A DNA stretch of 64,000 nt from an uncultured Candidatus Micrarchaeota archaeon (GTDB taxonomy: Archaea > Micrarchaeota > Micrarchaeia > Anstonellales > Bilamarchaeaceae): positions 113,117 to 177,116 of the forward strand of contig CAWDBH010000008.1 of NCBI GenBank assembly GCA_963800555.1. The letters run 5' to 3'. Below the pieces are notes generated by a model. The model did not search any database. It worked only from the letters and a program-made list of their open reading frames with translations, and was not told where the DNA came from. This document shows, in pieces, positions 44,521 to 62,491 of the stretch. The translations under genes and the position numbers were made by a program. How positions within the stretch are numbered: position 1 is the stretch's first letter; each line of letters opens with the position of its first letter.

Positions 44521-44967
44521 CTATTCGACATAGTCGTCTAAGGGGTTTCCGGAATGGGATCTGTACTGCCCGAGTAGTTTCTTCATGTCGGTGGATGCGC
44601 TCGCTACATCATCATGGCCTTTGCTCTTGGCGACTACAGTCACCTCACGCAAGAGGGTTTCCAGCATGCCGACTAGCTTATCTCGATTGAACATCGATTT
44701 CGCCACCATGCTGTCGAGCGATCTTACAGCAGCGATGACATCTGCTTTACCTGCGCGTTCGCTTGGGGCAGCATATGCACGCAAGGCGCTACACGCTGAT
44801 GTCACAATCAGATGCTCTGCTATGATGTCCGCATGGTCCCTATGTCGAAGTGCGGATAATTCATCTACGAGAAGAAGCGGGGATTTGGCTGGTCCTTTCA
44901 AAGGCCCTTTTTCTAAGTTACTGGCTTTGAGCGGTTGCGCCAACTTCCGGTCACCTGAAAATTCCAC
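44521..44967 (-). CDS. Hypothetical protein (148 aa), co-directional and 24 nt upstream of the membrane Cdc48 gene
   Basis: ORF with a GTG start and helical, protein-like composition. No recognised domain. Confidence 0.4.
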   Translation of the reverse strand: MEFSGDRKLAQPLKASNLEKGPLKGPAKSPLLLVDELSALRHRDHADIIAEHLIVTSACSALRAYAAPSERAGKADVIAAVRSLDSMVAKSMFNRDKLVGMLETLLREVTVVAKSKGHDDVASASTDMKKLLGQYRSHSGNPLDDYVE

Positions 44968-45114
44968 GCAGGGAAAATATATAAATGGGAGGCGGGTTTC
45001 GCGTTGCCAGTGGGATTTCGAGATGATTCATAGGCCGATTGCACCCTTTTAATTGGTTTTGGTGCAAATCGGTAGTTGTACATAGAAAACTGTGGTTTAT
45101 AGAGGTGGGATTGA
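44968..45114. promoter_or_regulatory. Divergent intergenic/promoter region between the two AAA loci
   Basis: TATA-like 'AAAATATATAAATG' (44974-44987). SD 'GAGGTGGG' (45102-45109) lies 5 nt before ATG 45115. Confidence 0.3.
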
Positions 45115-46662
45115 ATGATGGGCAAGTCTTTTACCAAAAGCAGCAGTCTAATGATAAGCGGGGAAAAAATCAGGGGCACCAATATATTCGTTCCGCAACG
45201 GCTGGAAAAGACCCGCGAGCTTCTTGTCGAGGGCATAACCGGGTACAAGAACCTCGGGCCGTATGGTTCGTTCGGAGTCCTGTTGAAAGGGATCGCGGGC
45301 ACCGGTAAAAGCATGTTCACAAGGTATATCGCGGATGAAAGCCAGACCGGAGCGCTTCTATTCCGCGCGCCGATGCTGACCGATCCGGAAGAGGTGAGGC
45401 AGCTATACGAATCCGCGAGGGCTGGTGCGAAAGACCATCCGGTGGTCATTCTCCTGGATGATTTCGATTATGTCGGAAAGCGCAGCGAATCCACCAATCC
45501 CGCGTTCAGGCCCATCCTGGCGCAGACCCTCGCCGAGATGGACGCTCCGGGCAAGAACCTCGGCGTCTTCACGTTCATAACCTCGAACCTGCCGGACATG
45601 CTTGATGAGGCTCTGCGCAGGCCGCCGAGGGTAACTTTCGAGATAGAATTCCTCCCCCCGACGCGCAGCGAGAGGGAAAAGATGCTCAAAGCTATACTCT
45701 CAGATCAGAGCATCCGGTCGAAATGGGAAGATGGCACGATTGCGTATGCGGCGAGCATCACGTTCGGTTATACCCCGGGCGACCTTCTCGGCGTGGTGCA
45801 GAACGCGATGATCCAGGCCAGGGTCGTGAAATCCGAGAAAGTCACCAACGTCCATGTCGATGCTGCGAAAAGCATGCAGAAACCTTCGGCGATACGCGAC
45901 ATGCCGTTCATAGAGCCCAAAGACAAGCTCGACAGCCTCGCCGGCGGATATATCTCAGCTCAGAAAGAGATGCTCGCGAAGCTTGGGGTGCGGATGGATA
46001 ACGGCGTCCTCGCGATAATCTACGGACCTTCAGGATGCGGCAAGACCGCTCTCGCGAAAGCGGTGGCCGCCGAGTTCGGTTGCAACTGCCTCTACTTCAA
46101 CCCTTCGCATATAATCGACAAATTCGTCGGGGAATCCGGCAAGGCGCTCGCTCGAGCGTTCAGCAGGGCGAGGGCGCTCAGCCCGTGCATATTGATACTC
46201 GACCAGGCCGAGGGCATACTCAATCCCGATAACCAGTATTCGAAGGACTGGACATCGGTGCTGAAATCCGAGCTCTCGGTTCCCATGCCCGGGGTCTTCG
46301 TCATGATGACCGGGACCGATCCATCGAACTGGGGGGACGAGGTGCTCACGCGTTTCCACAAGATACACGTGCCGAGGCCGGATGCCAAGTCCCAGGTTGA
46401 GATACTAAGGGCTCTCATACCAGCGGACGATCGAAAAAACGTGGATGTCGAAAGCGTCATGCGTTCAAGCCAAGGCAAGCTCACGCCCAGGGAGATAAGC
46501 ACCGCGTTGACCAGCATCCGGGATTTCGGGAGTGCTATCACCACCGATACCCTCCAGAAGGTATTGAGCGTCCAAGGCGGAGAGATCAATGAAGCCAATG
46601 AAAAACAGGTCGCTGAACGCGTCGGAGATGCCACCAAGACGTTCAGGGCCTTGATAGGGTGA
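45115..46662 (+). CDS. Tandem AAA+ protein with non-canonical Walker B motifs in both modules
   Basis: D1: Walker A 'GIAGTGKS' (45289-45312), Walker B 'VVILLDDFD' (45442-45468). D2: Walker A 'GPSGCGKT' (46024-46047), Walker B 'CILILDQAE' (46186-46212). No Cdc48-type N domain. Confidence 0.75.
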   Translation: MMGKSFTKSSSLMISGEKIRGTNIFVPQRLEKTRELLVEGITGYKNLGPYGSFGVLLKGIAGTGKSMFTRYIADESQTGALLFRAPMLTDPEEVRQLYESARAGAKDHPVVILLDDFDYVGKRSESTNPAFRPILAQTLAEMDAPGKNLGVFTFITSNLPDMLDEALRRPPRVTFEIEFLPPTRSEREKMLKAILSDQSIRSKWEDGTIAYAASITFGYTPGDLLGVVQNAMIQARVVKSEKVTNVHVDAAKSMQKPSAIRDMPFIEPKDKLDSLAGGYISAQKEMLAKLGVRMDNGVLAIIYGPSGCGKTALAKAVAAEFGCNCLYFNPSHIIDKFVGESGKALARAFSRARALSPCILILDQAEGILNPDNQYSKDWTSVLKSELSVPMPGVFVMMTGTDPSNWGDEVLTRFHKIHVPRPDAKSQVEILRALIPADDRKNVDVESVMRSSQGKLTPREISTALTSIRDFGSAITTDTLQKVLSVQGGEINEANEKQVAERVGDATKTFRALIG

Positions 46663-46666
46663 TCGC

Positions 46667-47185
46667 ATGACTATGAAACATGGTTCCGGGCCGCGGCAGG
46701 ATGCACGGCAAAAACCGGCATTTGAAGGAAATCTGTTGAAGACGCACGAAGTCCAGGTCAATCTCATATACATGCGGGGAGGCCAACAGGTCACGGAAAC
46801 CGTGGTCGTGCCTAAATCACTCATCACCGCAATGGCAGACCCGGGGGAGAGCAGCATGGGGCCCATGGAAGCCATGGAAAACCTCAGGGAGTTCAACAAC
46901 CTCAGGCTCGGCCCGGAACTCATATCGCTCAGCGAGCGTGGCGGTGTTTCGGTCCCGGCGGCCATCCTCGGATCCCAGGTGCAGCACGCGTATTCTGTGC
47001 ACGCGGTCATCGCAGCGGCGGATAAAAATATATCCGGCAGCCTCATGCTCCAGCACCCGGAAGTCAAGAAAAGGCTGAGGACGATCGCCGCCACCCTGAC
47101 CGGGGTCTCTTTGGATCAGGTGAAGGAACTGGAATCTCAGGGAAACTACCGTGTGGGTGGGCAGGACGGTCATCGTGAGGTCTAA
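46667..47185 (+). CDS. Hypothetical protein (172 aa), operon member
   Basis: The ATG is 4 nt after the AAA stop, with SD 'GGGTGAT' upstream. No recognised domain. Confidence 0.45.
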   Translation: MTMKHGSGPRQDARQKPAFEGNLLKTHEVQVNLIYMRGGQQVTETVVVPKSLITAMADPGESSMGPMEAMENLREFNNLRLGPELISLSERGGVSVPAAILGSQVQHAYSVHAVIAAADKNISGSLMLQHPEVKKRLRTIAATLTGVSLDQVKELESQGNYRVGGQDGHREV

Positions 47186-47186
47186 T

Positions 47187-47477
47187 GTGCCGACCATAAG
47201 TTTCAAGACGCAGAGGATCAAGTGCGATATGGGAAGCCATACCGAAGAGAGGGAAATGACGCTCCCTGCGGAGACCAGCGTCGCCGAGGCGAAGAAAGAG
47301 CAGGAGCAGAGGATAAGGCGGCTTCCGCAAGTGCAAGGCCAGCTCGAAGACGCATTCGGCCAGATAGAATCCTTGCGCGGCAAGCCATTGAATCCCGATG
47401 AGAGGAACGCGGTCGTCGCGCATCTCAACCTCACTTACATAAAAGACCCGAAGCAAAGGCTGATCGTGGCTCCGTAG
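47187..47477 (+). CDS. Hypothetical protein (~96 aa), operon member
   Basis: The GTG at 47187 is 1 nt after the upstream TAA, with 'GAGGT' 5 nt upstream. The product begins (M)PTISFKTQ. The track ORF begins earlier, at 47151, inside the upstream gene. Confidence 0.4.
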   Translation: MPTISFKTQRIKCDMGSHTEEREMTLPAETSVAEAKKEQEQRIRRLPQVQGQLEDAFGQIESLRGKPLNPDERNAVVAHLNLTYIKDPKQRLIVAP

Positions 47478-47485
47478 GTGTCCTT

Positions 47486-48688
47486 TTGCCGACCATAAAA
47501 TTCCAGCCCAGCGAGATGCGCTCCATGCTGGCGAAAAGCATGGGCAAGATGCGCATGCTCAGGAAGAAATCCATCATCGAAGGGAAAATGGGTCCAGAGA
47601 AGGGGGAGTACGCGAAGGAAGTGGTATGCGCGGCATCGTTCATAGACTCGCTCTGGAACGAAGAGCGCATCAAGAGCACGGTGAGCGCGTTGATCGACGC
47701 TTATAACGGGGACCCTGCGCTAGCCAGATACGATAGCACGCAGGAAGCGTGGTGGGCCGAGCAGGAGGAAGGGGCGGCATTCCTCCGGACGCTGCATACC
47801 ATGACCGCGTATTGCCTCCGCGGGGCGGCATGCGGGCCTGAGGACGCGGCACACATCCTCCAGGTGATGAAGCACCTCAATGAAAGCGAGGAAAGCCGCT
47901 CGGATAAGGATTTCATCCTGCCTGCCTATGGCGGTCTGGGTATCGGATCGGAATACCTGGGCCCGGTTCTCGCAAGCATGACGGGAAACAGATTTCTTCT
48001 GCCGAAAGCGGCCGGGCTCGCTCTAGACCTGGACTGGTACCCGGACGATTCGAAGGAGGGGCTGGCCGAGACATCTAAGGCGCTGGAAGCGGCCGCGAAG
48101 CTCGGGTTCTACAGGATCCTGTTCCAGATGCCTGCGGCCTGCTCTTACGATCAGCTCTATAAGAAATTCGAAGTGGAGGCGGCGCAGACCGAAAGCGGGA
48201 TAATCGGCAGCATATCCTGCAGGCCTCAAAAGGAGGAAGGGAAGCCGAAAACGCTATTCCAGCAGCTTGAGAACGGGGATAAGAAACTCAGCGAAGTCAA
48301 GGATTCCGAATTCGTCCGGGCGGATGATCTGGTCTTCCTTAGAACCCGCTCCACGACAGTCGCGGCGTGCATAGACTCGGTCGGATTCGCTGAAAGGGTG
48401 CTGTTCACTGCTGCGGAAGGGGAGCTCTCAGCGAGCGGAGGCGTCTATTTCCACATCGCTGGAGACAGCGGGAATAAATCCGGGTCCGGGGTTCTCGGGA
48501 TAATCACGGAAAGGTTCTGCGCCACCAGGATGTTGGGGGACAACCAGTTTTCCATCGACGGTTTAAGCGGGATGCTGGATGAACTTACCGCAAAATGCGG
48601 GGCCAAGGCGATGACATTCTACGCGACAGTGAAGAACAGCAAGACCGAAGAGGAGTACGATGTCGAGGCGGTGGAAGATGCCGGTTAG
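47486..48688 (+). CDS. Hypothetical protein (400 aa), operon member
   Basis: TTG start with 'AGGTG' 6 nt upstream. The product begins (M)PTIKFQPS. No recognised domain. Confidence 0.5.
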   Translation: MPTIKFQPSEMRSMLAKSMGKMRMLRKKSIIEGKMGPEKGEYAKEVVCAASFIDSLWNEERIKSTVSALIDAYNGDPALARYDSTQEAWWAEQEEGAAFLRTLHTMTAYCLRGAACGPEDAAHILQVMKHLNESEESRSDKDFILPAYGGLGIGSEYLGPVLASMTGNRFLLPKAAGLALDLDWYPDDSKEGLAETSKALEAAAKLGFYRILFQMPAACSYDQLYKKFEVEAAQTESGIIGSISCRPQKEEGKPKTLFQQLENGDKKLSEVKDSEFVRADDLVFLRTRSTTVAACIDSVGFAERVLFTAAEGELSASGGVYFHIAGDSGNKSGSGVLGIITERFCATRMLGDNQFSIDGLSGMLDELTAKCGAKAMTFYATVKNSKTEEEYDVEAVEDAG

Positions 48689-49445
48689 ATCGATGACCAT
48701 AGACGTGACGGGTAAATGCCAGAACCGCTGCAGATTCTGCTACACCCGGGACAAAGAAAGCGTGATGGCATTCGAGCGGTTCAAAGGCCTGGTCGATGGT
48801 TTCCCATCGCTTGAAAGGGTCGAGGTCGGCGGAGGGGAGCCGCTCCTCAACCCAGATCTGTCCCGCATGGCAGCGTATCTCCTCTCGAAAAAACTCCGCA
48901 CTGACATATCCACGAACGGTCTGATATATCCGGAATGCATCGTGCGGCTGGCTGCAGGGGAGCTGCTGAGCCTGCAGGTCAATTTCCCTGCCGGGGAGGA
49001 GAATGCTTATGATCTGGTCACGCGCACGAGTGAAGGTTTCCCAACCCTTCTGGAAAACGTGAAGCGGCTTGCTGCGACCGGGCTTAGGACGAGGCTGAGG
49101 CTCACCATATGCCCCGAAAACGCATCGCAGCTCGTGCCTGTTTTCCACATCGCAAACGGATTGAATCTGCCCCTCATCGTGGCTCCGGCTCTTCCTGTCA
49201 AGGGAAATCCCGCGCAGATGCTTGAAACAGATGAAATAGACGAATTGCACATGAGGGCAATGATGCTGAAAATGCGTCATCGAGCGCGTTTGGATTTTTT
49301 ATGGTCGCATGGCGAGACGCCATGCCCGGCAGTTGCAAAAGCATACCGATTGCCCTTGCGGATAATGCGGTGCAGCGCAGATATCGGGGAGAAGGTCCAT
49401 GTGGACCCTGCAGGCATCATAAGGGGGTGCGAGTTCCTTGGCTGA
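48660..49445 (+). CDS. Small radical-SAM enzyme with a C-terminal Cys-containing (twitch/SPASM-like) extension
   Basis: 'GKCQNRCRFCY' is CX3CX2C (48717-48740). 'VGGGEPLL'. C-terminal Cys residues 'CPAV...RCSA...GCEF'. ATG 48678 (SD 'GGCGGTGG') or 48693 are likelier starts than 48660. Confidence 0.75.
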   Translation: MSRRWKMPVRSMTIDVTGKCQNRCRFCYTRDKESVMAFERFKGLVDGFPSLERVEVGGGEPLLNPDLSRMAAYLLSKKLRTDISTNGLIYPECIVRLAAGELLSLQVNFPAGEENAYDLVTRTSEGFPTLLENVKRLAATGLRTRLRLTICPENASQLVPVFHIANGLNLPLIVAPALPVKGNPAQMLETDEIDELHMRAMMLKMRHRARLDFLWSHGETPCPAVAKAYRLPLRIMRCSADIGEKVHVDPAGIIRGCEFLG

Positions 49446-52400
49446 AACCACTTTCAAAAGTGAAAAGCCCGTAAAGCCCGAAGAAAGGGCTGCCGGCAGA
49501 CCGAAAGGGTATTGGCAGGGGCTGCTCAGCGATGCGAGCCTGGCGCCAGTGAGAAAGCCGGAACCGAAACCAAAACCGGAGCGGCTGCCCGAATCGCAGC
49601 TGCGCGAACTTTTGTCCTCTCTGGGAAACAGAAACTTAAGCGAGGAACGCGGGGAATATATGTCGGAGAGTGACGTAGAACAGAATGTGCATGTGATAAA
49701 CTCTGTGGCCAATTGGCTCGATAGCCTCGGAGACATCCACACCGAAGATGCCAAGAAAATAATCCAAGCGGCATGGAGGTCACAGTCCAGCATGTTGCAG
49801 GGGAAGGCGTGCAAGAGCATCCCTATACTGCCTTCGGAAGAGCAGGTGCCCATGTTTGAATTAGCTTTAGCGGAGATGCCCGGATCGCGTTCATTCCACG
49901 ATATATTCGATTCGATATCCAAAACATGTCCTGAAACGGATAGATCGAGGCTCGCAAGGGCCGCATTGAATTCAGATCACCCTGGGTTGCAAGAAAAGGG
50001 ATTAAGATTAATATTTTCCTTGCCTGAGGCCGAACGTTCGGAGCTGGTTGTAACCGCGTTGGCAAAAAGCGGGGTGGCGATGGGAGCGTTTGATCGCATC
50101 GAAGAATGCCCCGGACAAGATAGGGTCAGGCTGATTAGTGCGGCATGGGGGTCCCCGTTGCTATCTGTCCGGGAAAAAGCAGTCGGAGCCATACCATCGT
50201 TACCTGCAGATGGGCGTGTCATCGCAATCGAAGTCGTTTTAACGGATACCGAGACCTCAAAAGGCGCCAGAGAAGCGTTTGACTTTGTATTCCAGAACTG
50301 CCAGGAAACAGATAAGTCAAGGCTCATCAAGGCGGGGCTGAAATCCAAGGACAACGATATCGCCAAAAGGTCATTGAAACTCGCTGAAGGGCGGGCGGAT
50401 GAAGCCGAGCTGCTGATGGCAGTGCTCGAACCCGCCATAGAAACCGGCTCAGCGTACCGCAGTAACGCATATCATTATCGGCATAATGTCTCCGCACCAG
50501 AATTCGAGGTCGAGGTGCAGGCCGCAGAACGCGCGTGCAGCATTCCGGAGAACCCGAAGCTCCTCGAGACGGCGAGCAAGGTCATGGCGCAGACATTAGC
50601 TAGCAAACCCAATACCCGGCCAGGCATTCTGCTCATGATCCCGAAGTTCCCTGCAGGATACCGCGCTGATATTATCGAAGCCGCCTTGTCATCAGATGAG
50701 TTAATCGACTCGATACCACTCATCTCCGGGGTTCTCCCAGCCGAACGCAGGGACGCGCTTTGGCATAAGGCAGAGGTGTCGGTCACAAATAAACTGGGGT
50801 GGCGGAGTGTTGATGAGAAACTAGCCGCTACTTTTCCGCTTTTTCCATCTCAATACCGGGTGAATATCATCAATTGCGTGCTTGCGCAGGATCTGAGTCA
50901 AGGAGCCAATTCCAGTCAGACCGTTGACTTTCTGATGTGCTTCAAGACTTGGGAACTCATTTCCGGACTTGACCCAGAGCATCAGGAAAAGAGCTGGAAA
51001 CTCGCCCAGACCGCGATCATAAACGCGCTTAGATACCGGTTAAATTCGGAGATCAGATTGGAAGCAGTGAGGCTTGCAGTCAAACTCCCCACAGTGCACT
51101 CGGAGCCTGTTTTCTGGCGCATCGCGAATTCTACTTATCCGAATGTGCATCAGGAAATGGACCGCTTGTTCGATCTCATGCCATCAGAAAATCAGGTCGC
51201 GTATCTCATGCAAGCGTTTGAATCGTATAAATCTGGTACAAGGAGGAAAGCGTTCGAGAAGACCTTCTCTATGACGGAAGAGCAGCAGATCGAACTGCTC
51301 GAATGTGCGCTCGAATCGAGTTATGAGGACATCCGGATGATAGCTGTGAGGAGGAAGCGGGATATCCCGGAGAAAACACAGATGGCGCTCCTGCCAAGCA
51401 TGATTCATGATACGGACGAAAGAATTCGCATCGAGGCGACGTTGTCTTCGCCAGTCGGAAATGAAGAAATGAAAAAAACAGTGCTGTCGGCGTTGAAATC
51501 AGATGACCAGCTAGTGTTTCTCACTGCGCTTGGGCTCTCAAATGGATTGTTTAGTTCGGATGAGCAGAAAAATATCTCGAGTCGGGCGGCTTACAAAAAA
51601 ACCAAGTCAGCGCTTGGCTCGGGCCAGTATGATATCCGCATGAAGGCAGCGGATGCAATCGTGGCTTTCGATGGGCGCAGAAAATACGCGCTGGTGAAAA
51701 ACGCGCTCAATTCAGATCATCTTGGGGTGCGACAAAAAGGGATTGAACACACATTTGATTATAACGATCCGATGGAGCAGAAAAAACTAGCCAAAAAAGC
51801 ATTGCAATCCCGATACGGGGATAACATAGTTAAAATTGCATTCGAGCTTTTGGCCGAGAAGGACGTTACGATATGTGGTTGGCAGACGCCTGAGCTTCTT
51901 AAGCTGGCAGAGGAAAGGCTCGGGCAATCACTGAAATGGGCGAATGTCGAAGCTAATCAGCATAACACGGAAGCGATTAGTTATTGGAATCTAGAACGCC
52001 AGGTGGACCGCGGCGTGATCGCGCATGCGATGCAGTGGCCATTCCCCCAGAGATTTTCAACCTGTATTATCGAGTGCGCAGCCAGGTCAGGACCGAAAGG
52101 CTGCCTTGCAATCGTGAAAAAGAAAGCTTCGTTCGGTTGCATTAGGGCATATGTGCTGACAAACGTGCTTAACCAAGAGAAGTATTGGGCAGACGCGGTC
52201 GAGATGATCCCATCGTTTCCGGTCAGCGCAGAATATCATGAAACTCGGGAATCCCTGTGGGATACTGCAGCGATAAGCGCGGAAAAGGCGCTCTGCAGCG
52301 GGGTAAAGCCGAAAAAGGCAGGGATGCTCCTAAAGACATTCCCGAAAGAGCACTGGCCAGCGCTTGTGGCGCTCAGGGACAAGGCGCTTCCCGAACCAAT

Positions 52401-53973
52401 AAGTTTTTTTATCGCAGCGCTCGCGGTCCAGATGCCGGAGGAGGCTGGGAGGGGCGCCCTGCCATGGGCGGCTCCGCTAATTGCCACCGGGCTGGATTCT
52501 TCAGACCCTGCCGTATGCCACGAAGCGGTTCTGTGTTACCCCGGGATCCCCAAAGCATATTCATCTGATAGCGCACTGGCGGCCGCGATTGGAAAATTTA
52601 GGGTAATGCTCCTTTCAGAAGATAACACCGTTTCCATACGTGCGTCTGAACGCATCGGAGCATTCCCCAAGGAGCACCAGCCCGAGTTGATTGAAGCCGC
52701 CATGGCATCAAACTGGTGGTATACCATCCTGAATAGCATGCCGCTGCTGCAGAAACTGCCACCCGGGCTTCAAAGAGAACCGTCTTGGGGACTTGCGATT
52801 AATCACGCGAGCATCGCGCATTACTGCCCTGTCGAATCTATCCGCGCATGGGCAATAGATATCGCTGCCGCATTTCCCGAGAACAGGTTTGCGGAAGTAT
52901 TGGCGCACACGACCCCATATTCAGATAAATCCCACCTGGAGAATCTCATCAGGAGAAGGATGGAGATCAAGAAATCAACCATTCCACCCAATGCGGTATC
53001 CTGCATAGCAGAGCTGCCAGAAGGGCGGCGAACTGAGATTTACGAGGTCGCGATAAAATCCATAGCATCCAGGCTTAGCTCCGACGATTCCGCCATTTCT
53101 AAGAACGCATCCGAGCTCATGGGAATATTCCCCCAAGAGCACCAACCCGAGTTGATTGAAGCCGCCATGGCGTCCGGTTGGGGATTCGCCGCTCAGGCCG
53201 CAATTAAGCTTCTGATGGAATTGCCTCAAGAGCTCCAGGCAGAGAAGTCCTGGCTGGCGGCCCAGAAGCAAGCGAAAGCCGCGCTTGTCGGAAAACCGAC
53301 TTCGACCGGAATACCTGCTGATACCATGCTCGAGACGGTCCGGAAGTTCCCCAAACAACGTCAGGAAGCGGTGCTCAGGGATGTGTTTGAAGGCAATCCG
53401 GAAAACGTTTCACTCGAGCTGGTAAAATTAGGTATTGAATGCGATGATACGCAGATTGCGCTCGACGCGGTAATCTCCGCATGCAACCTGGCTGATAATT
53501 ACAGGGCGATGCATCCCCTGCCTGAGGGAAGAAGGAAAGTTCTCCTGCAAAATGATGACCCGGTGTTCTTATTGGTTGACGCGCTAATTCCAGTTCTCGA
53601 TGCGCTAGATTCGAAAGACTATCCGATCGTGGCGAAGGCCTCGGGATGCATAAGCAGATTCCCGCTCCAGTTCCGGGCTGGAATGATAAAATCCCTGATG
53701 GATTCGGGATTCTGGGGTCCGACATTGGATGGGATATCAATGCTGCAGAACCTGCCGATACCCATGCAATCTGAGGAATTATGGGCAGAGGCTCAATCAT
53801 GGATGATATCCGCTTTCTCGCTGGATTCGGATCATCTGCGCCAGAGGGCCGTCAAACTCCTTCCCGGTTTCCCGAAGTCTCGTCTGAGATTGCTGATCAT
53901 GGTTGCAGAGCTGTCAGAATTCGATGACGTGAAGAACAATCTCGAAGAAGCCCGCATGATGGAAAATAAATGA
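49438..53973 (+). CDS. Giant HEAT/ARM-like alpha-solenoid repeat protein (1511 aa)
   Basis: TTG start overlapping the rSAM stop, with 'GGGGGTG' upstream. Reiterated ~70-aa units such as 'C.ETD(K/R)SRL(I/A)(K/R)A(G/A)L(K/N)S.D...' and 'FP(K/Q)EHQPELIEAAMAS.W'. No signal peptide or TM. Confidence 0.7.
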   Translation: MAETTFKSEKPVKPEERAAGRPKGYWQGLLSDASLAPVRKPEPKPKPERLPESQLRELLSSLGNRNLSEERGEYMSESDVEQNVHVINSVANWLDSLGDIHTEDAKKIIQAAWRSQSSMLQGKACKSIPILPSEEQVPMFELALAEMPGSRSFHDIFDSISKTCPETDRSRLARAALNSDHPGLQEKGLRLIFSLPEAERSELVVTALAKSGVAMGAFDRIEECPGQDRVRLISAAWGSPLLSVREKAVGAIPSLPADGRVIAIEVVLTDTETSKGAREAFDFVFQNCQETDKSRLIKAGLKSKDNDIAKRSLKLAEGRADEAELLMAVLEPAIETGSAYRSNAYHYRHNVSAPEFEVEVQAAERACSIPENPKLLETASKVMAQTLASKPNTRPGILLMIPKFPAGYRADIIEAALSSDELIDSIPLISGVLPAERRDALWHKAEVSVTNKLGWRSVDEKLAATFPLFPSQYRVNIINCVLAQDLSQGANSSQTVDFLMCFKTWELISGLDPEHQEKSWKLAQTAIINALRYRLNSEIRLEAVRLAVKLPTVHSEPVFWRIANSTYPNVHQEMDRLFDLMPSENQVAYLMQAFESYKSGTRRKAFEKTFSMTEEQQIELLECALESSYEDIRMIAVRRKRDIPEKTQMALLPSMIHDTDERIRIEATLSSPVGNEEMKKTVLSALKSDDQLVFLTALGLSNGLFSSDEQKNISSRAAYKKTKSALGSGQYDIRMKAADAIVAFDGRRKYALVKNALNSDHLGVRQKGIEHTFDYNDPMEQKKLAKKALQSRYGDNIVKIAFELLAEKDVTICGWQTPELLKLAEERLGQSLKWANVEANQHNTEAISYWNLERQVDRGVIAHAMQWPFPQRFSTCIIECAARSGPKGCLAIVKKKASFGCIRAYVLTNVLNQEKYWADAVEMIPSFPVSAEYHETRESLWDTAAISAEKALCSGVKPKKAGMLLKTFPKEHWPALVALRDKALPEPISFFIAALAVQMPEEAGRGALPWAAPLIATGLDSSDPAVCHEAVLCYPGIPKAYSSDSALAAAIGKFRVMLLSEDNTVSIRASERIGAFPKEHQPELIEAAMASNWWYTILNSMPLLQKLPPGLQREPSWGLAINHASIAHYCPVESIRAWAIDIAAAFPENRFAEVLAHTTPYSDKSHLENLIRRRMEIKKSTIPPNAVSCIAELPEGRRTEIYEVAIKSIASRLSSDDSAISKNASELMGIFPQEHQPELIEAAMASGWGFAAQAAIKLLMELPQELQAEKSWLAAQKQAKAALVGKPTSTGIPADTMLETVRKFPKQRQEAVLRDVFEGNPENVSLELVKLGIECDDTQIALDAVISACNLADNYRAMHPLPEGRRKVLLQNDDPVFLLVDALIPVLDALDSKDYPIVAKASGCISRFPLQFRAGMIKSLMDSGFWGPTLDGISMLQNLPIPMQSEELWAEAQSWMISAFSLDSDHLRQRAVKLLPGFPKSRLRLLIMVAELSEFDDVKNNLEEARMMENK

Positions 53974-56900
53974 TCGTGATGTTCATGGCCAAAACCCGAT
54001 TTAAACCTGAAAACGCCGCAAAGCCCGAAAAGACTGCCGGCAAGCCTTTGAGCTACTGGAATGGCTTGTTGAACGACGCGGACCTTAAGCCAATGAAGAA
54101 ACCGGATCCGAAATTAATGGTGGAGCGGCTGCCGGAATCCCAACTGCGAGATATCCTAACGTCCCTGAAGCACAAAAACCTAAGCGAGGCTCGCGGGGCA
54201 TACATGCAGGATAGCGATGTAGAACTGAATCGGGATGTGATAACCTCGGTTGCCAAATGGCTTGATAACCTTGGAGACCTTCATCCAGAAGACGCCATGG
54301 AAATAGTCCTGGCGGCATTGGACTCGTCATCGGATATATTACGCACAACCGCATACCAGAACATCAATATGCTGCCAGTGAGCGAGCAGGTACGCATTAT
54401 CGAGAAATTGGCTGCCAGACCGTCAGAGTGGTCAAAACTCGAAATGGAGATGTTAGATTGCGTATTCGAAGAATGCTCCGAAACGGATAAGGCCAAGCTG
54501 ATTAGGATCGCACTGAAATCATTTTCCTATCGGTTGCAGGCAATGGCATGCGAGAACATATCCCTGCTGCCAGTGAACGAGCAGGTGGACGCAGTTGAAA
54601 AGATTTTGGCACCTGATCGTCGTACGCGTTCCGAGGAATTTTCAAAATCCATCATCAAAGGTTTCATCGAGGTGCTGGCGCTATGCAAAGAGCCGGCGGG
54701 TCAGGTTCGTCTGATCAACGCGGCATTGGAATCATCGTTGGAAGCGGTGAGGATGCAGGCATGCGAATGCATCCCCATGCTTGAAGCTGGTGTGTGCGCG
54801 GGCGCGATCGAAACCGCCTTGACACGCTGCGATCCGGATACCGCGAGGAAAGCGTTCGAGCGGATTGGGGTATGTTCGCAAACAGAGAAATCGAGGCTTA
54901 TCAAGATCGGGCTGAAGTATAGGGACAAAAGAATCTGCGAGCAATCGTTCGGATTGATAAGCGGGCAGCCGGACGAGGTTGATCTGCTGATGGAGGCTCT
55001 TGAATCGAGCCATGAACTCCCGATGCGCGCAGCCGAACGCGCATGCAGCCTTCCGGAAAACGAAACTCTCCTAATCGCAGCAAGCAAGTGCGTCACACAA
55101 GCATTCCACAAGGATCCCGAAACTCGCGGGGATATCCTTCGCTTGATACCTAAGTTTCCTGCAAAATACCGCGCAGACATGGTCGAAGCAGTCCTATCGG
55201 CAGGAGACCTGATCAATTCTATATCTCTGATCCCAGAAGTCTTACCCTTGGAACGCCGAGCTAAGCTTTGGAACGCGGCTGGAGCGGCAATCTCGTGTGC
55301 GATCAAGAGCGGAGAAGGAATGCCCGTGCATGAAGCGATCAAGCTCGCCATCAAACTTCCGAAAGAGCACTCGCCCCGCGTGTTCTGGCATATCGCAAAT
55401 TCGACCAATACGGATGCGCATCGGCAGATGGTCGCGATGTTGGATATCCTTCCTGCGGAAAAACAGGCAGCATACCTAGTGCAGGCTTTTGAATCGTATA
55501 AATCCAGTTCCAGGAAAGAAGCGTTCGAGAGAATATTCGCGTTGCCGGAAGCTCAGCAGATAGAGCTGCTCGAGTGCGCGCTGGAATCTGGTTACGAGGA
55601 TATCAGGGTCATGGCCGCGAGAGGGAAGCGGGATATCCCAAATAATGCGAGGCTAGTGCTCCTCCCTAGTTTGATTCGTGACCTGGACAGCCGGATTTCC
55701 CTGGGAGCTGTGCTAGCCCAGCCAATCAGCAAAGAAGCTAGGAAAAGTGCCGTGCTATCTGCTTTGGAATCAGATGACATCCTGGTCTTCCTTACTGCTC
55801 TTGACCTCTCCATAGGTTTGTTCAGTCCGGAGGAGATGGATACGATCTCGTGGAGATCGGTTTTCAGGAAGGTCAAGTCTGCTATTGGGTCAAGCCAATA
55901 CGAAGTGCGCATGGAGGCGGCAGAGGCGATAGCGGCTTTCGACGGGCGCAAGAAATACAAATTGACAAAAAGAGCCCTTGGTTCAAGATATCTGGGGGTG
56001 CGGCAAAAGGCGATCGAGCACACGCTTGATTATCCAGATATTAAAAGACGGAATAGATTGGCCAAAGCGGCGCTGAAATCAAAATACGGGGACAACGTCC
56101 TTAAAATCGCATTCGAGCTATTGGCCTATAAGGAAGAGACGATAACCAATATGAAAGTCCCCAAGCTTCATAAGTTGGCGGAGAGCCGGTATCTAAACGT
56201 GCTGTTCTATTCAAATCCTGCCGATCACTATGTTCCCCGGAGCTTGAGATCTGAGGTAGATGACAGCTTCATCGCCCATTCCTATGTTCCCCGGAGCTTG
56301 AGATGCGAGATGGATGACGGCTTCATCGCCCATGCGATGGAATGGCCTTACTCCAATCATTTTTCCTGGCTTGTCGACTGCGCAGTCAGGGCAGGGCCGA
56401 AAGGCTCCATCGCAGTCGCAAAAAAGAGCCTTTCCGATACCAAAGCAATAGAAGCTTACAAGTTAGGGGAGGCGCTAAGCACGGCGATTTACCGTGAGAG
56501 GTACTGGGCCGACGCGATCGCATACATACCTTCTTTTCCTAACGGATGCAATTGGGAATCAAGGGAATCCTTATGGCGCAAGGCATCAGAGAACGCTGAA
56601 AAAGCCATCTGCAGCGGGATAAAGCCGAAAAAGGCAGGGATGCTCCTAAAGACGTTCCCGAAAGAGCACTGGCCGGCTCTGATCGCGCTTAATAAGAAGG
56701 TGCAGCACGGTCCCGCTGCTTTCTACATAGCCGAGCTTGCGATGGAATTGCCGGAAAAGTGCGATAAAGACACCCTGTCGTGGGCGGCGTCGCAGATATC
56801 GCTTGGATTGGATTCATCGGATGCGGAAATGCGCAAGCGCGCGATACTGTCTTTCCCAGCGGCAGGGAAAATCCAGCAGTTTGGCGCGATAGCATGGACC

Positions 56901-57497
56901 ACCGCTATGGAGAAAACCAAGGCGATGATATGCTCGGATGAATCTGGTGATGCTATAGAGGCATCCAAACGCATTGGGATGTTCCCGCAAGAGCGGCAAC
57001 CCGAACTGATCGAAGCCGCCCTGCAATCGAAGTGGTGGAACTCGATACTTGACGGGATAGACGCGCTGGCGAAGCATCCGAATCTCCGGGACGAGAGATT
57101 GTGGAGCAAGGCGCTCGATTGGACGATGCGATCCCGTGGCTGCACCACCGAAACGATCCGCATGCACGCAGTGGAAATCGCCTCCTCCTTCCCTGCGGAA
57201 CGCTATCTCGCTTCGTTGGCGATGGCGAGTGCGCTGCCCGACAAAACCCATCTCGGGAATCTCATAAGGAAACGGCTGGAATCAGATAGAACAATTCCCC
57301 CCGCCATGATATCCCGCATCGCTGATTTGCCTGAAGGGCAACGGGCCGGGATGTATGACCTCGCGGTCAAATCCATAACCGCCAGGCTCGGTTCAAATGA
57401 TCATGGTATCGTGTCAAATGCGTCGGATTGCATAGGCAGCTTCCCGCCCTCGCTTCAAGTGGGCCTGATAATATCCACGCGCAGGTTCGCGACCTAG
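53970..57497 (+). CDS. Giant HEAT/ARM-like alpha-solenoid repeat protein (1175 aa), paralogue of the preceding gene
   Basis: Collinear similarity to the upstream protein from the N-terminus ('MAKTRFKPEN...ERLPESQLRDILTSL' vs 'AETTFKSEKP...ERLPESQLRELLSSL'). ATG 53985 aligns best with the paralogue's start. The ATGA at 53970 overlaps the upstream stop. Confidence 0.7.
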   Translation: MIVMFMAKTRFKPENAAKPEKTAGKPLSYWNGLLNDADLKPMKKPDPKLMVERLPESQLRDILTSLKHKNLSEARGAYMQDSDVELNRDVITSVAKWLDNLGDLHPEDAMEIVLAALDSSSDILRTTAYQNINMLPVSEQVRIIEKLAARPSEWSKLEMEMLDCVFEECSETDKAKLIRIALKSFSYRLQAMACENISLLPVNEQVDAVEKILAPDRRTRSEEFSKSIIKGFIEVLALCKEPAGQVRLINAALESSLEAVRMQACECIPMLEAGVCAGAIETALTRCDPDTARKAFERIGVCSQTEKSRLIKIGLKYRDKRICEQSFGLISGQPDEVDLLMEALESSHELPMRAAERACSLPENETLLIAASKCVTQAFHKDPETRGDILRLIPKFPAKYRADMVEAVLSAGDLINSISLIPEVLPLERRAKLWNAAGAAISCAIKSGEGMPVHEAIKLAIKLPKEHSPRVFWHIANSTNTDAHRQMVAMLDILPAEKQAAYLVQAFESYKSSSRKEAFERIFALPEAQQIELLECALESGYEDIRVMAARGKRDIPNNARLVLLPSLIRDLDSRISLGAVLAQPISKEARKSAVLSALESDDILVFLTALDLSIGLFSPEEMDTISWRSVFRKVKSAIGSSQYEVRMEAAEAIAAFDGRKKYKLTKRALGSRYLGVRQKAIEHTLDYPDIKRRNRLAKAALKSKYGDNVLKIAFELLAYKEETITNMKVPKLHKLAESRYLNVLFYSNPADHYVPRSLRSEVDDSFIAHSYVPRSLRCEMDDGFIAHAMEWPYSNHFSWLVDCAVRAGPKGSIAVAKKSLSDTKAIEAYKLGEALSTAIYRERYWADAIAYIPSFPNGCNWESRESLWRKASENAEKAICSGIKPKKAGMLLKTFPKEHWPALIALNKKVQHGPAAFYIAELAMELPEKCDKDTLSWAASQISLGLDSSDAEMRKRAILSFPAAGKIQQFGAIAWTTAMEKTKAMICSDESGDAIEASKRIGMFPQERQPELIEAALQSKWWNSILDGIDALAKHPNLRDERLWSKALDWTMRSRGCTTETIRMHAVEIASSFPAERYLASLAMASALPDKTHLGNLIRKRLESDRTIPPAMISRIADLPEGQRAGMYDLAVKSITARLGSNDHGIVSNASDCIGSFPPSLQVGLIISTRRFAT
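56228..56335 (+). repeat. In-frame 2 x 54-bp tandem duplication inside the second giant gene
   Basis: Copy 1 (56228-56281): 'ctatgttccccggagcttgagatctgaggtagatgacagcttcatcgcccattc'. Copy 2 (56282-56335): 'ctatgttccccggagcttgagatgcgagatggatgacggcttcatcgcccatgc'. They encode 'YVPRSLRSEVDDSFIAHS' and 'YVPRSLRCEMDDGFIAHA'. Confidence 0.85.
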
Positions 57498-57544
57498 ATG
57501 GAACTGTCTTCCAGCGCCCGCATCCTGGTTGGCTGGATCAGGCA

Positions 57545-57973
57545 TCAGCCCGTACCTGCCGTGATGAGCGCGATCTTGGCAGCCACCTCATCCACGAGAG
57601 GCGGGAGCTGGCCCGCGAACCGAGGATCCTTGTCGAAGATATCCTGCATCGGATTACACATGAGCCTAATGCGCAGCTCCGAGAGGAGTTCCGGATCATC
57701 GCTTTCATCTATCACTCTTTTCGCAAGTTTCATTGCTTCCGCATATGCTGTGCTCGCATTTTCTGTCGGGACCGATTTAGTTATCTTGCTTCTTATGCCA
57801 GTCCAACCTTCTGCGGCGCTGCTCTCTTTTATCTCCCGTCCTGCGGCAATCTGGAAAAGCCCACCTATCCTGGTTAAATCTGCTCTAATCGGTTTCAATC
57901 TATCGGTCGCCGGGTCAGGTAATTTCGGCATGACAGTTTCATGCCCGGTTATATTTGATGCAGCCAGTATCAT
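57545..57973 (-). CDS. Hypothetical protein (~142 aa)
   Basis: Minus-strand ORF with balanced composition ('AYAEAMKLAKRVIDESDDPELLSELRIRL'). Start taken at 'MILAASN' (ATG 57973), 10 nt after the upstream stop. Preferred over the Ser-rich antisense + ORF 57498-58277. Confidence 0.35.
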   Translation of the reverse strand: MILAASNITGHETVMPKLPDPATDRLKPIRADLTRIGGLFQIAAGREIKESSAAEGWTGIRSKITKSVPTENASTAYAEAMKLAKRVIDESDDPELLSELRIRLMCNPMQDIFDKDPRFAGQLPPLVDEVAAKIALITAGTG

Positions 57974-57983
57974 GATATCACCT

Positions 57984-58514
57984 TCAAACGCATGCCAACT
58001 CGATCCGCTTCTCCAACTCGCGGGTGACCTGGTCATGGAGCTGAGCCAAACCGTAATTATTGGCAGGGGCGCCGCACATCTGGTAAGTGGGGAGCGCTTC
58101 CTTCAGCTCAGAGAGTATCTCGATGCCCGGAAACTCGAGGCTGTGGGAGTTGTCCCTGGCATGCTTCAGTATGTAGCGTGCGAGCCTCATCGCTATCCGA
58201 TGGCTTTGTCTGGCCTTCTCTGTCGGAACCGATCCCAACGCTTCTCTCTCATCTGCCGCTATCACCAGTTCCGTTAATACTTTCAACCTACTCCGCAGAT
58301 GATACTCAATAACCCTGGGGGAATGCACGGCGTAATCCATCATCGACATCGGGCCGGGCAGAGCCGTGGGCGGCTGGCGCGGCACGATGTCATCCAATGC
58401 CGGATCCTTCGTCATCCTCCTACGGAGTCTTGCTTTTGAGCGGGTTATCATCTGTTGCATTGTCTCACCAGCAATAACCAGCACCAATGATATATTTATA
58501 GCTTTTATGTACAA
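57984..58514 (-). CDS. Hypothetical protein (158-176 aa)
   Basis: Minus-strand ORF. Alternative start 'MQQMITRSK' at 58460. No recognised domain. Confidence 0.4.
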   Translation of the reverse strand: MYIKAINISLVLVIAGETMQQMITRSKARLRRRMTKDPALDDIVPRQPPTALPGPMSMMDYAVHSPRVIEYHLRSRLKVLTELVIAADEREALGSVPTEKARQSHRIAMRLARYILKHARDNSHSLEFPGIEILSELKEALPTYQMCGAPANNYGLAQLHDQVTRELEKRIELACV

Positions 58515-59026: not shown

Positions 59027-60010
59027 CTATACGAATCTCCGCACTTGCAGCAGCTTATCCCATGCAGCCGTAGAATCTATGGAGAGGCGTGCCATGGCAA
59101 GCCCCTCGCGGATGCTCTCCGCCTTATCTGCAACATAGATCGCAGCGGCCGCGTTCAGGCAAGCTATGTCTCGGGCCGGGCCGAGTTTCGCTCTGAGCAG
59201 TTCGGTGATTATGCTTGCGCTCTCTGCCTTAGACCCTGCTTTGGGCACTTCCCACCTTTCGATTCCGACCGATGAGGCGTCGAAGAGCGTCGTCTCCACG
59301 CGCCCGTACTTGAGTTCGCTCATCTTCGTGATGCCTAGCCCTATCTCGTCCATCCCTTCGGAATGCACCACGAGCGCCCTCTTAGTGCCGAGGTCCGATA
59401 AGACATGCGCCATCGTCTCGGTGAGTTCCGGATCGAACACTCCGAGGACCTGAGCGCTAGCTCCGGCCGGGTTCGCAAGCGGACCGAGGATGTTGAATAC
59501 CGTGCGCATCTCCAACTCCTTCCGCACGGGAGCCACGTTCTTCATGGCCGGGTGGAACAGCGGCGCGAACATGAAGCCGATCCCGGTCATCTCTATGCAG
59601 CGGCATACGTCCTCTGGTTCGAGCATTTTCACTCCCATCTCCTCGAGCACGTCGACCGAGCCGCTAGAGCTCGATACCGAGCGGTTACCGTGCTTGGCGA
59701 TCCTCACACCGGTTCCTGCAGCTATGAACGCCGCGGCGGTCGAGATGTTGAACGTGCCGGAAGAATCCCCTCCTGTGCCGCACGTGTCCACGAGCGGCTC
59801 AGCGGAAGGGCTGATGGTCCTCGCGTGGCCCCTCATGGCTCTGGCGAATGCAGCGATCTCATCTTTCGACTCGCCCTTCATCCTGAGGGCCATAAGATAA
59901 CCTGCGGCCTGGGCAGGAGTGTATCTTCCCTCGATCATCCTGTCCATGAGGCCGGTCGCCTCAGCAGGAGTGAGGTTCTGCCTCAGAACCAGTTTCTTCA
60001 TGCATTGCAT
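59027..60010 (-). CDS. trpD: Anthranilate phosphoribosyltransferase
   Basis: 'LTPAEATGLMDRMIEGRYTPAQAAGYLMALRMKGES', 'DTCGTGGDSSGTFNISTAAAFIAAGTGVRIAKHGNRS'. Start ATG at 60010 or 60001; the track ORF extends to 60043. Confidence 0.85.
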   Translation of the reverse strand: MQCMKKLVLRQNLTPAEATGLMDRMIEGRYTPAQAAGYLMALRMKGESKDEIAAFARAMRGHARTISPSAEPLVDTCGTGGDSSGTFNISTAAAFIAAGTGVRIAKHGNRSVSSSSGSVDVLEEMGVKMLEPEDVCRCIEMTGIGFMFAPLFHPAMKNVAPVRKELEMRTVFNILGPLANPAGASAQVLGVFDPELTETMAHVLSDLGTKRALVVHSEGMDEIGLGITKMSELKYGRVETTLFDASSVGIERWEVPKAGSKAESASIITELLRAKLGPARDIACLNAAAAIYVADKAESIREGLAMARLSIDSTAAWDKLLQVRRFV

Positions 60011-60095
60011 ATCCGCACCACACCCATATCTGTATAGATTCAATAATAATTGTATGCTACCCAGGATTCGCTTGGGGGTAAGGTGCCTTCGATAA

Positions 60096-60356
60096 TCATC
60101 CTATCCTGATATCCGGCTCGATCTTTCTCCAGTCCATGTTCATGAACTGCCAGAGCGTTTTCGTCGTCGAATCATACACCAGGTCGTTCTTGGATGCAAC
60201 CTCCTTCGGCCTGTCTATCTCTATGAGCGGGAATCGCCGCATGAACATTATCTCATCGCGGAAAGGGTTGCGCTCTATGACATAGATGCGCTTGCGCTCG
60301 GCCTTGACCTTCTCGCACCATTCCATGACCTTGTCTATCTCTTCTTTGGTGACCAT
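60096..60356 (-). CDS. Hypothetical small protein (86 aa)
   Basis: ORF with normal composition. No recognised domain. Confidence 0.45.
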   Translation of the reverse strand: MVTKEEIDKVMEWCEKVKAERKRIYVIERNPFRDEIMFMRRFPLIEIDRPKEVASKNDLVYDSTTKTLWQFMNMDWRKIEPDIRIG

Positions 60357-60409
60357 TTTTTCCCCTTCATGCGAACTGTATTATATAGTTTCCCGGTTTA
60401 ATAATAAAT

Positions 60410-60648
60410 ATGCCGAATGCAGATGACAAGATGAAAGCCGCGTTGAGCGCAGCTGCCAAAAGGCAGGCTTTGAAAGCAAAGAAAGCTGCCGCTCCAGAAG
60501 CGAAACCCCCCGAACCGATTGCACCTGAAAAACCCCCAATCCCGAAACCAGAAAGCCAAAGCGCTCCGGCCGCTTCGAAGAAGGAGGATATCTTCGACAT
60601 CATCAAATCCGTATTCACGGCCTGGTGGGTGTTCATCAAGAAGGATTA
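60410..60648 (+). CDS. Lys/Ala/Pro-rich small protein, 3'-truncated at the compositional junction
   Basis: 'MPNADDKMKAALSAAAKRQALKAKK...EDIFDIIKSVFTAWWVFIKKDY'. Beyond this point the frame reads through unrelated high-GC sequence. Confidence 0.3.
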
Positions 60649-61180
60649 CCGGGCCGCTGCCGTCGGCCGCGGCCGTCGCGGCGAATGCACCGTCCGAGCT
60701 GAAACTGATGCTCGTGACCGCCGCCGATGCGCCGTACAAATTGGCGATCGGAGCACCTGTCGCAGTGTCGATGAGACTCGCGGAGCCGTCTCCGTAACCG
60801 TAAGCGATGTCAGAGCCGTCGGGGCTGAAGGCGGCTGCTGAGACCTCGTCGCCCGGGAAGCTCGTAAAGCGACGCACCGCACGCAACGTGTCCGAATCGA
60901 GGAGCTGGAGGCTGCCGACCGCGACGGTCGGTCCAGCATACGTGGCTACCGCGAGGTACCTCCCGTTCGGGGAATAGGCGACGAGGTCGGAATTCGTTGA
61001 CGGCGTATGGCCGAGGAGCCGGCCGGTCGATGTGCTGTACACGGCAACCCCGGCACCGCTGGCCGATTGATACTGCACGCGCGCGACAGCGAGTCTCCCG
61101 CCGTCCGGGCTGACGCTCAGCGCTTGGATCTGCCCATATCCGTCTCGCTCAGCGGCGGCAGAACCGATGAATGTCCCCAC
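60646..61180 (-). CDS. WD40-repeat segment (continuation of the TIR gene in another frame; 3' end cut at the junction)
   Basis: Repeats 'LSVSPDGGRLAVA', 'VAYSPNGRYLAVA', 'AAFSPDGSDIAYG', 'ISFSSDGAFAATA'. The same frame stays open and WD40-like upstream to ~61297 ('IRTFAVDPHGPLVYISAG'). Confidence 0.6.
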
Positions 61181-62450: not shown

Positions 62451-62491
62451 CCACCTGACGCGCGAACCGCGATCATTCTTCCCGAGGACAG

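Follow-up and report, generated by a model that had tools for sequence, protein, structure and literature searches.

Two giant neighbouring genes in a 64,000-nucleotide stretch of DNA from an uncultured soil archaeon of the Candidatus Micrarchaeota, family Bilamarchaeaceae (GenBank assembly GCA_963800555.1, contig CAWDBH010000008.1, positions 113,117 to 177,116 of the forward strand; this whole stretch is referred to as the window) encode HEAT-type alpha-solenoids made of degenerate units of about 31 residues. To judge from their sequences, they are old, diverged tandem duplicates, and ongoing gene conversion between them is not supported. They stand at the end of a tightly packed cassette (45115-57497) in which they are preceded by an AAA+ ATPase, a protein of about 276 residues, a protein of about 405 residues and a radical SAM enzyme. 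This cassette is very rare and apparently undescribed, and its HEAT proteins are new members of the HEAT class. We tentatively favour, with somewhat less than even confidence, a reading in which the solenoids serve as scaffolds or adaptors that can be exchanged for one another and attach by an N-terminal tag to a core of ATPase and radical SAM enzyme, with duplication of the solenoid gene multiplying the specificities of this core.

The two giant genes are:

49438 to 53973, plus strand: gene 1, a HEAT-repeat alpha-solenoid of 1511 residues with a TTG start

53970 to 57497, plus strand: gene 2, a HEAT-repeat alpha-solenoid paralogous to gene 1, 1175 residues

Both open reading frames (ORFs) were confirmed at the positions assigned to them by an earlier, sequence-only reading of this DNA, and the peptide blocks it had quoted as shared were found in both proteins; by homology, the true start of gene 2 is probably the ATG at 53985 (MAKTRF...). 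The collinear paralogy from the N-termini onwards that had been proposed for the pair is borne out by BLASTP, which aligns the first approximately 450 residues at 44% identity over 465 residues and the next approximately 800 residues at 48% identity over 796 residues (E = 0), as well as by a codon alignment comprising 1139 shared codons with 50% amino acid, 61% nucleotide and 47% third-position identity. A cytoplasmic location, likewise proposed, stands as far as membrane spans are concerned, i.e. neither protein has a transmembrane-like segment (maximal Kyte-Doolittle value for a 19-residue window 1.3-1.4).

That both proteins consist of reiterated helical units, as had been claimed, is seen with profile searches, with a repeat model and in a predicted structure. 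Pfam HEAT_2 matches six of seven family members at E ≤ 0.001 (best E 2.8e-19); at 26.4 bits each (E about 9e-6), genes 1 and 2 narrowly miss the gathering score of 27.7. An iterated repeat hidden Markov model, seeded on the obvious 31-residue units of the homologue P0006, converged on the consensus KAVELIPSLPEEEQPELIKAALNSP, a helix-turn-helix of about 31 residues, and detects 18 units in gene 1, 17 in gene 2, 28 in the homologue P0005 and 34 in the homologue P0003, where the modal spacing of the units is 31 residues. The AlphaFold model of gene 2, based on a seven-sequence alignment (mean predicted local distance difference test score (pLDDT) 78.5, predicted template modelling score 0.39), is composed of about 67 short paired helices of 9-19 residues and contains no strands. 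Searched against the PDB with Foldseek, this model gave 407 matches at E ≤ 0.001, the top ones being all long HEAT proteins (CAND1, Kap121/importin-beta, RanBP5, Utp10/20 and mTOR; E 4e-9 to 1e-6), and the best PDB matches at the sequence level are alphaRep proteins, i.e. engineered HEAT-like repeats (E 8e-5 to 1e-2, residues 583-700).

At a scale above the single unit, the N-terminal thirds of both genes show repeats of about 62 and about 124 residues, and two further repeat structures distinguish the genes:

52585 to 53970, plus strand: three tandem supermodules of about 155 residues in gene 1 (residues 1050-1204, 1205-1366 and 1390-1511), each of about five 31-residue units

56220 to 56327, plus strand: a 54-nucleotide tandem duplication present in gene 2 only (85% identity, repeat family D9)

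The supermodules of gene 1 recognize each other in fragment-versus-rest BLASTP (E 1.8e-17 to 5.9e-10), with the repeats of family D3 spaced by 465 nucleotides. Gene 2 contains one supermodule and the first unit of a second, and the last two supermodules of gene 1 are missing from it. The extra C-terminal modules noticed earlier in gene 1 are therefore real, with three copies of about 155 residues against one in gene 2, and the module FP(K/Q)E(H/R)QPELIEAA does recur, at 52615-52709, 53080-53174 and 56934-57028 (family D3). Gene 1 grew later by tandem duplication of the 155-residue five-unit block; the reverse course, in which gene 2 would have been cut short and its lost modules would lie decayed behind it, was rejected, as tblastn downstream of gene 2 found no remnant. 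The 54-nucleotide duplication encodes two 18-residue copies (…YVPRSLR.E.DD.FIAH), which sit in a predicted disordered loop of gene 2 (residues 745-781, pLDDT <50).

The age of the duplication can be read from fragments found in other metagenomes. Fragment P0002 is 69% identical to gene 1 and 59% to gene 2, and fragment P0011 is 73% identical to gene 1, including the extra C-terminal modules, and 28% to gene 2. Since both are closer to gene 1 than to gene 2, the duplication as well as the C-terminal expansion predate the lineage splits, and the existence of gene-1 orthologues at 69-73% identity elsewhere indicates that both copies are maintained. By the Nei-Gojobori method, overall dS (synonymous divergence) between genes 1 and 2 is 1.43 and overall dN (non-synonymous divergence) is 0.41. 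Because dN/dS is 0.15-0.47 in ten of ten blocks, both copies are under purifying selection, and the description of the pair as rapidly evolving does not hold in the sense of positive selection.

Ongoing gene conversion had been suspected from near-identical nucleotide tracts. Such a tract does exist, though only a single one of about 90 nucleotides in 3.4 kb of aligned sequence:

52279 to 52370, plus strand: gene-1 copy of the near-identical tract, CSGVKPKKAGMLLKTFPKEHWPAL, a consensus-like HEAT unit

56595 to 56686, plus strand: gene-2 copy, the counterpart of 52279 to 52370

The tract has 92% identity over 25 codons and includes stretches of 34 and 20 nucleotides without a mismatch; the background is 61% for the gene pair, and the next best 25-codon windows reach only 75-79%. 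The Lys/Glu-rich product of the tract is identical at 23 of 24 residues. In the block that contains it, dS is 0.71, below the 1.0-2.5 of the other blocks, and its 20-residue motif is, by eye, not obviously kept in the distant homologues P0003 and P0005. These features are what would be expected if the pair were kept partly homogeneous by ongoing conversion, with the tract betraying the process. However, when synonymous identity is conditioned on identical residues and residue type, using a scan statistic on codon identity at identical residues with shuffling within residue type, the excess in the tract is not significant (permutation p = 0.09 with windows of 15, 0.18 with 20 and 0.23 with 25). 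Codon identity for Lys and Glu, the residues in which the tract is rich, is 74-81% throughout the pair, the tract represents a consensus-like HEAT unit, and it is the only one of its kind. Moreover, the gene-1 copy of the tract is not covered by an independent contig, and polishing cross-talk is conceivable given at least one indel in the window. With one short tract, a non-significant synonymous excess and an overall dS of about 1.4, we consider ongoing conversion very improbable. An RNA element embedded in the tract was also tried as a candidate and rejected, with fold z-scores of -0.5 to +0.1, i.e. at background, on both strands of both copies.

The pair could also owe its existence to the assembly, in which strain variants of one gene might have been expanded to two copies. 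The window does come from a metagenome assembly and shows one indel relative to independent contigs, and no independent contig covers gene 1 at approximately 52007-52450, which includes the tract, nor eight nucleotides at 53951-53958; with the tract uncovered and one indel present, a polishing artefact within the gene-1 tract is possible. For the duplication as a whole, however, such an origin is hardly credible. With only 61% DNA identity and a dS of about 1.4, far above strain variation, the two genes are not collapsed strain variants. Eight soil-metagenome runs contain parts of the region, and independent contigs at ≥99% identity, from several of these runs, cover gene-1-specific as well as gene-2-specific sequence at approximately 3-5x, similar to the depth of the flanks. 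Independent contigs that run through the gene-2 tract carry gene-2 flanks on both sides, and none of the independent contigs joins gene-1 flanks to gene-2 flanks through the shared tract. One contig from run X1 begins within the last part of gene 1, 11 nucleotides ahead of the gene-2 ATG, and continues into gene 2. Furthermore, an unrelated metagenome contig (L007) has the same tail-to-head array of the family, and gene-1-specific orthologues occur elsewhere. The indel itself is an extra A at 47133/47134, which splits the second cassette gene, of about 276 residues, into ORFs of 172 and 108 residues; contigs from two independent runs, X1 and X2, do not have this A, so that the frame is restored and reads ...VKELDLRETTVWVGRT... 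as in the orthologues. The extra A is thus probably an assembly error or a minor variant rather than the mark of a pseudogene.

The four genes that precede the HEAT giants in the cassette are:

45115 to 46662, plus strand: first gene, a classic-clade (Cdc48/PAN/FtsH-like) double AAA+ ATPase of 515 residues whose N-domain is very short

46667 to 47477, plus strand: second gene, about 276 residues, no known domain; its ORFs match residues 19-165 and 171-278 of the orthologue in the related locus L001

47486 to 48688, plus strand: third gene, about 400 residues, no known domain, 36-78% identical to the orthologues in loci L001, L002, L003 and L006

48660 to 49445, plus strand: fourth gene, a radical SAM enzyme of 261 residues (Pfam Radical_SAM, 2.7e-13)

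The ATPase matches Pfam AAA in two stretches (7.4e-39) and is 60% identical to its L001 orthologue. Only about 45 residues precede the first AAA domain (D1), which has canonical Walker A, sensor-1 and arginine finger motifs. The Walker A motif is intact in the second domain (D2) as well, and the Walker B glutamate is replaced in all three aligned sequences (window, L001 and L003), which read DD(F/L)DY in D1 and LILDQAEG in D2; D2 looks like a natural ‘trap’ or a structural domain. The radical SAM enzyme scores 50.9 bits against a Pfam cut-off of 29.5, and its CxxxCxxC motif (CQNRCRFC, residues 20-27) is kept in the full-length orthologues of L001 and L002. Three C-terminal cysteines (C222, C238 and C257) are invariant in five sequences, and no match to a SPASM/twitch profile was obtained. 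As called, the radical SAM enzymes of the family have 227-261 residues, and the nearest solved relatives are BlsE, MoaA, SkfB and CteB (E 5e-8 to 4e-5). All NCBIfam scores of the ATPase and of the radical SAM enzyme are far below cut-off. In five loci (window, L001, L002, L003 and L006) the stop of the radical SAM gene overlaps the start of the HEAT gene by eight nucleotides, and the conservation of this overlap suggests coupled translation. The proteins of 276 and 405 residues had no match in Pfam (E ≤ 1), PHROGs or PDB profile searches; an AlphaFold2 model of the third protein reached a pLDDT of 52.7, and the fold search with it gave no meaningful match. A scan for bacterial promoters and terminators remained at background level, with bacterial models that are not applicable to an archaeon.

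The giants had been said to fill 58% of their operon. This figure needs two flanking ORFs, at 44585-45052 and 57498-58277, which we judge spurious, and the share that stands is 65% of the real cassette. Both flanking ORFs are on the plus strand, Ser/Leu/Arg-rich and antisense to other ORFs, and from this composition they look spurious; the ORF at 57498-58277 had no match in Pfam, PADLOC or NCBIfam. The minus-strand ORFs opposite the flanking pair (44521-44967, 57545-58036 and 57984-58514) are also without a Pfam match, which makes the judgement on the coding status of both regions a tentative one.

Outside the window the cassette is found only sporadically. An exhaustive HMMER search with gene 2 against 1.84 billion representatives gave only 10 matches at E ≤ 1e-3, the families of the third and second proteins have four and six members, respectively, the former among 5.8 billion proteins, and altogether about 10 distinct instances of the cassette or its parts were found in billions of proteins. 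Scans of GTDB-representative genomes with the alignments of the HEAT and 405-residue proteins found nothing, and metagenome scans gave nothing with the 276-residue alignment and one true relative (L008) with the AAA alignment. A word-indexed search with gene 1 returned only gene 1 itself, and for gene 2 the cluster representative is a 44-residue fragment. Literature searches found no description of this gene combination.

Where it occurs, gene order is kept: L001 (from a metagenome-assembled genome of a Candidatus Bilamarchaeaceae member, Micrarchaeia), L002 and L003 show it complete, L006 and L008 only a part of it. The full-length HEAT homologues P0003 (1389 residues) and P0005 (1590 residues) are each preceded by the same four cassette genes, and the order is no different in L003, where the HEAT protein is as short as 426 residues and is followed by ribosomal protein S8e. 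A distant variant (L010-L012, JGI 3300045016/45117/45118) comprises a 542-residue AAA+ protein, a 253-residue gene and a radical SAM gene called as two ORFs (73 and at least 156 residues), with no 405-residue gene in between.

Within this fixed order the HEAT gene is, by sequence comparison, the last and most variable member. Between the window and L001, L002 and L003, the AAA+ ATPases are 60% identical, the 276-residue proteins 44-54%, the 405-residue proteins 36-40% and the radical SAM enzymes 41-49%, and the figure falls to 28-29% for the HEAT protein, the length of which ranges over 426, 1175, 1389, 1511 and 1590 residues. In a close relative from a bog (sample 3300010341) the AAA+ ATPase is 91%, the 405-residue protein 78% and the radical SAM enzyme 62-64% identical to those of the window, with the HEAT gene after the radical SAM gene being only 38% identical to gene 1, over the N-terminus. 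HEAT copy number is one in L001, L002 and L003, two in the window and at least three consecutive family ORFs on L007 (JGI 3300010341, 1-1076), which carries the end of one family ORF, a complete 266-residue member and the start of a gene-1-like ORF (73% identity over 52 residues). Adjacent paralogues on L007 overlap by eight nucleotides, like the radical SAM/HEAT junction. From this row of three ORFs it follows that tandem arrays of the HEAT family recur and that their copy number differs between relatives.

The genes that flank the cassette differ at every locus. In the window the neighbours are archaeal housekeeping genes (archaeal PEP carboxylase, IleRS, ValS, TrpD, TrpY and a Cdc48-like ATPase). 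The Cdc48-like double AAA protein (41767-44496, minus strand) has 909 residues, and its N-terminal region of about 350 residues looks multi-pass membrane-spanning. A further AAA+ gene near the cassette (31924-33663, plus strand) encodes a TPR-AAA fusion of 579 residues. The content of guanine plus cytosine is 0.62-0.69 in the last 4 kb (60001-64000) versus about 0.54 in the rest of the window.

What the otherwise so variable HEAT proteins have in common is a short N-terminal tail:

49438 to 49611, plus strand: N-terminal tail of gene 1, with the tag AGRPKGYW (49492-49515) and ERLPESQL

53970 to 54155, plus strand: N-terminal tail of gene 2, with the tag AGKPLSYW (54036-54059), predicted to be disordered

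In all eight family N-termini one finds AG(R/K)Pxx(Y/F)W, a spacer rich in Pro and Lys, (E/K)(R/K)(L/I)P and L..ED, with A19, G20, P22, W26 and P51 being invariant even when the short 266-residue paralogue is included. The tag motif occurs once per family protein, and elsewhere in the window and the loci there is one spurious match, at 63189 of the window. In the gene-2 model, pLDDT is below 50 at residues 1-26 and 35-50 of the tail.

In the explanation that we favour, one HEAT solenoid could take the place of another as a scaffold or adaptor subunit. Each would dock via its N-terminal AG(R/K)PxxYW...ERLP tail onto the ATPase and radical SAM core and would display a different large helical surface, which would choose the partner or target for the core to act on. 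In the lineage of the window, duplication would then have led to two specificities per core, and in the bog relative to at least three. Since the ATPase has nearly no N-domain of its own, an adaptor supplied in trans is plausible. The earlier suggestion of a scaffold or recognition-type protein pair is likewise plausible, with the HEAT gene being the most divergent and the most length- and copy-number-variable member of the cassette. Extended to a complete archaeal machine, i.e. a hexameric AAA+ ring and a radical SAM enzyme steered by exchangeable HEAT solenoids that plug in by AG(R/K)PxxYW, with tandem multiplication of the solenoid genes opening up further targets, be it in defence or in modifying proteins or nucleic acids, the idea becomes distinctly more doubtful. 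Several points weigh against an adaptor role. No cassette protein is tied to a function by experiment or by a known homologue, two of the cassette proteins (276 and 405 residues) have no domain detectable in Pfam, PHROGs or the PDB, and the physical interaction between tail and core is something that we purely infer. Copy-number variation is deduced from about 10 loci, mostly on short contigs, and L006 and L007, which come from one sample, may belong to different organisms. Neither RNA-seq runs holding the region nor other RNA data for it were found. Finally, the same facts fit solenoids that are substrates instead of adaptors.

Solenoids as substrates would mean that the HEAT giants are clients, with their tail being modified by the radical SAM enzyme, gripped by the AAA+ ring, or both, and that the cassette serves to mature or remodel them. 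The invariant A, G, P, W and P of the tail lie in a predicted disordered segment, and disordered handles are of the kind used by AAA+ unfoldases and by peptide-modifying radical SAM enzymes; two of the nearest solved relatives of the radical SAM enzyme, SkfB and CteB, modify peptides, and the gene of this enzyme is linked to the HEAT gene by the conserved eight-nucleotide overlap. However, the radical SAM enzyme, of only 227-261 residues as called, has no recognizable peptide-recognition (RRE) domain, other close relatives, i.e. MoaA and BlsE, act on small molecules, and it is hard to see why a substrate should diverge fastest and vary most in length within its own system, so that we regard this explanation as rather unlikely. 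About equally unlikely, in our estimate, is an anti-virus or conflict system, in which invader proteins would be sensed by diversifying HEAT proteins, with the ATPase and the radical SAM enzyme acting together as the effector, a view that overlaps with the adaptor model. It draws on the sporadic distribution with other flanking genes in each genome, on a sensor-like repeat protein that is fastest to diverge and variable in copy number, and on the top PADLOC matches of three components (IetA 1.9e-23, pVip 3e-12 and HEAT-ARM_XIII 6.5e-18). Yet these matches are at a generic superfamily level, far below curated cut-offs (IteA 77.5 versus 510 and viperin 29.2 versus 180), the usual effectors (reverse transcriptase, nuclease, protease and others) are missing, the cassette is surrounded by housekeeping genes rather than by a defence island, and dN/dS never reaches 0.5. 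The bog relative (L008), moreover, also has an AAA-like gene on the other strand upstream of its cassette, a recurrence that suggests conserved synteny and vertical descent.

Three described antiviral systems were compared with the cassette. Type XIII retrons have accessory HEAT/ARM proteins (Mestre et al. 2020, PMC7736814). Their PADLOC model (PDLC02919) is the sole one that matches both giant genes (6.5e-18 and 6e-11), and in both systems a large helical repeat protein is encoded beside an enzymatic core; since the match spans about 130 residues of a 1972-position profile, the similarity is at the level of repeats. A type XIII retron as such was rejected, with PADLOC matching its HEAT/ARM component only and with no reverse transcriptase or SWIM/DEDE protein in the cassette or flanking ORFs scanned, where the msr/msd non-coding RNA was not searched for. 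Prokaryotic viperin was rejected on the score of the radical SAM enzyme with viperin_w_prok (29.2 bits against the cut-off of 180) and on the extent of the pVip match, which covers only the generic radical SAM core (residues 14-151). So was IetAS (IteAS), on the IteA_antiphage score (77.5 bits against 510) and on the lack of a protease domain in any cassette gene. Among radical SAM enzymes, the twitch/SPASM group (MoaA, BlsE, SkfB and CteB) has the CxxxCxxC motif in common with the cassette enzyme, which also carries three conserved C-terminal cysteines; its 227-261 residues as called and its NCBIfam scores far below cut-off set it apart. The cassette ATPase, like the type-II classic-clade AAA+ proteins Cdc48/p97 and NSF, has two AAA domains per chain with a degenerate D2, which is also seen in NSF. 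In contrast to these proteins, it has no substrate-binding N-domain and carries DD and DQ at its Walker B positions, and the Cdc48 model gives it 133 bits against a cut-off of 803.

For the solenoids themselves, the nearest prokaryotic counterparts are proteins with PBS-lyase-type HEAT-like repeats (HEAT_2/PF13646), the natural parents of the artificial alphaRep binders, with which they share the helix-turn-helix unit of about 31 residues. The giants of the window differ in being 5-20 times longer than typical prokaryotic HEAT_2 proteins, in having mostly units too degenerate for Pfam (26.4 versus 27.7 bits) and in the N-terminal tag and cassette link to an ATPase and a radical SAM enzyme that are the family's own. 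With the long HEAT solenoids of eukaryotes (CAND1, importin-beta/Kap121, Utp10/Utp20, the mTOR N-terminus and SF3B1), all of them helical scaffolds or adaptors of 1000-2400 residues, the gene-2 model matches at probability 1.0 over more than 1100 columns, yet sequence identity is only 9-12%, and TM-scores of 0.1-0.25 indicate that the superhelix geometry of the model is unlike theirs; on the predicted structure, gene 2 and the eukaryotic solenoids are of the same fold class, with no evidence of common descent or function. In eukaryotic machines, the large adaptors are as a rule giant HEAT solenoids (importins, CAND1, TOR and condensin subunits); those of archaea have been little studied. In the cassette, the order of the genes is fixed, and a family of such solenoids, with a clear docking-type tag and variable copy number, goes together with an ATPase and a radical SAM enzyme. 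Should the adaptor model fail, what is left is an ordinary old duplication of a repeat protein. Should it be true, two domain-less protein families would gain a function, and the cassette would be a simple prokaryotic case of one enzymatic core with swappable solenoid specificity subunits. A familiar arrangement of this type is found in the 19S particle of the proteasome, where Rpn1 and Rpn2, two paralogous giant alpha-solenoids, dock on an AAA+ ring and present binding surfaces; Rpn1 and Rpn2 are built of PC repeats, unlike HEAT, and their likeness to the cassette is one of functional analogy only.

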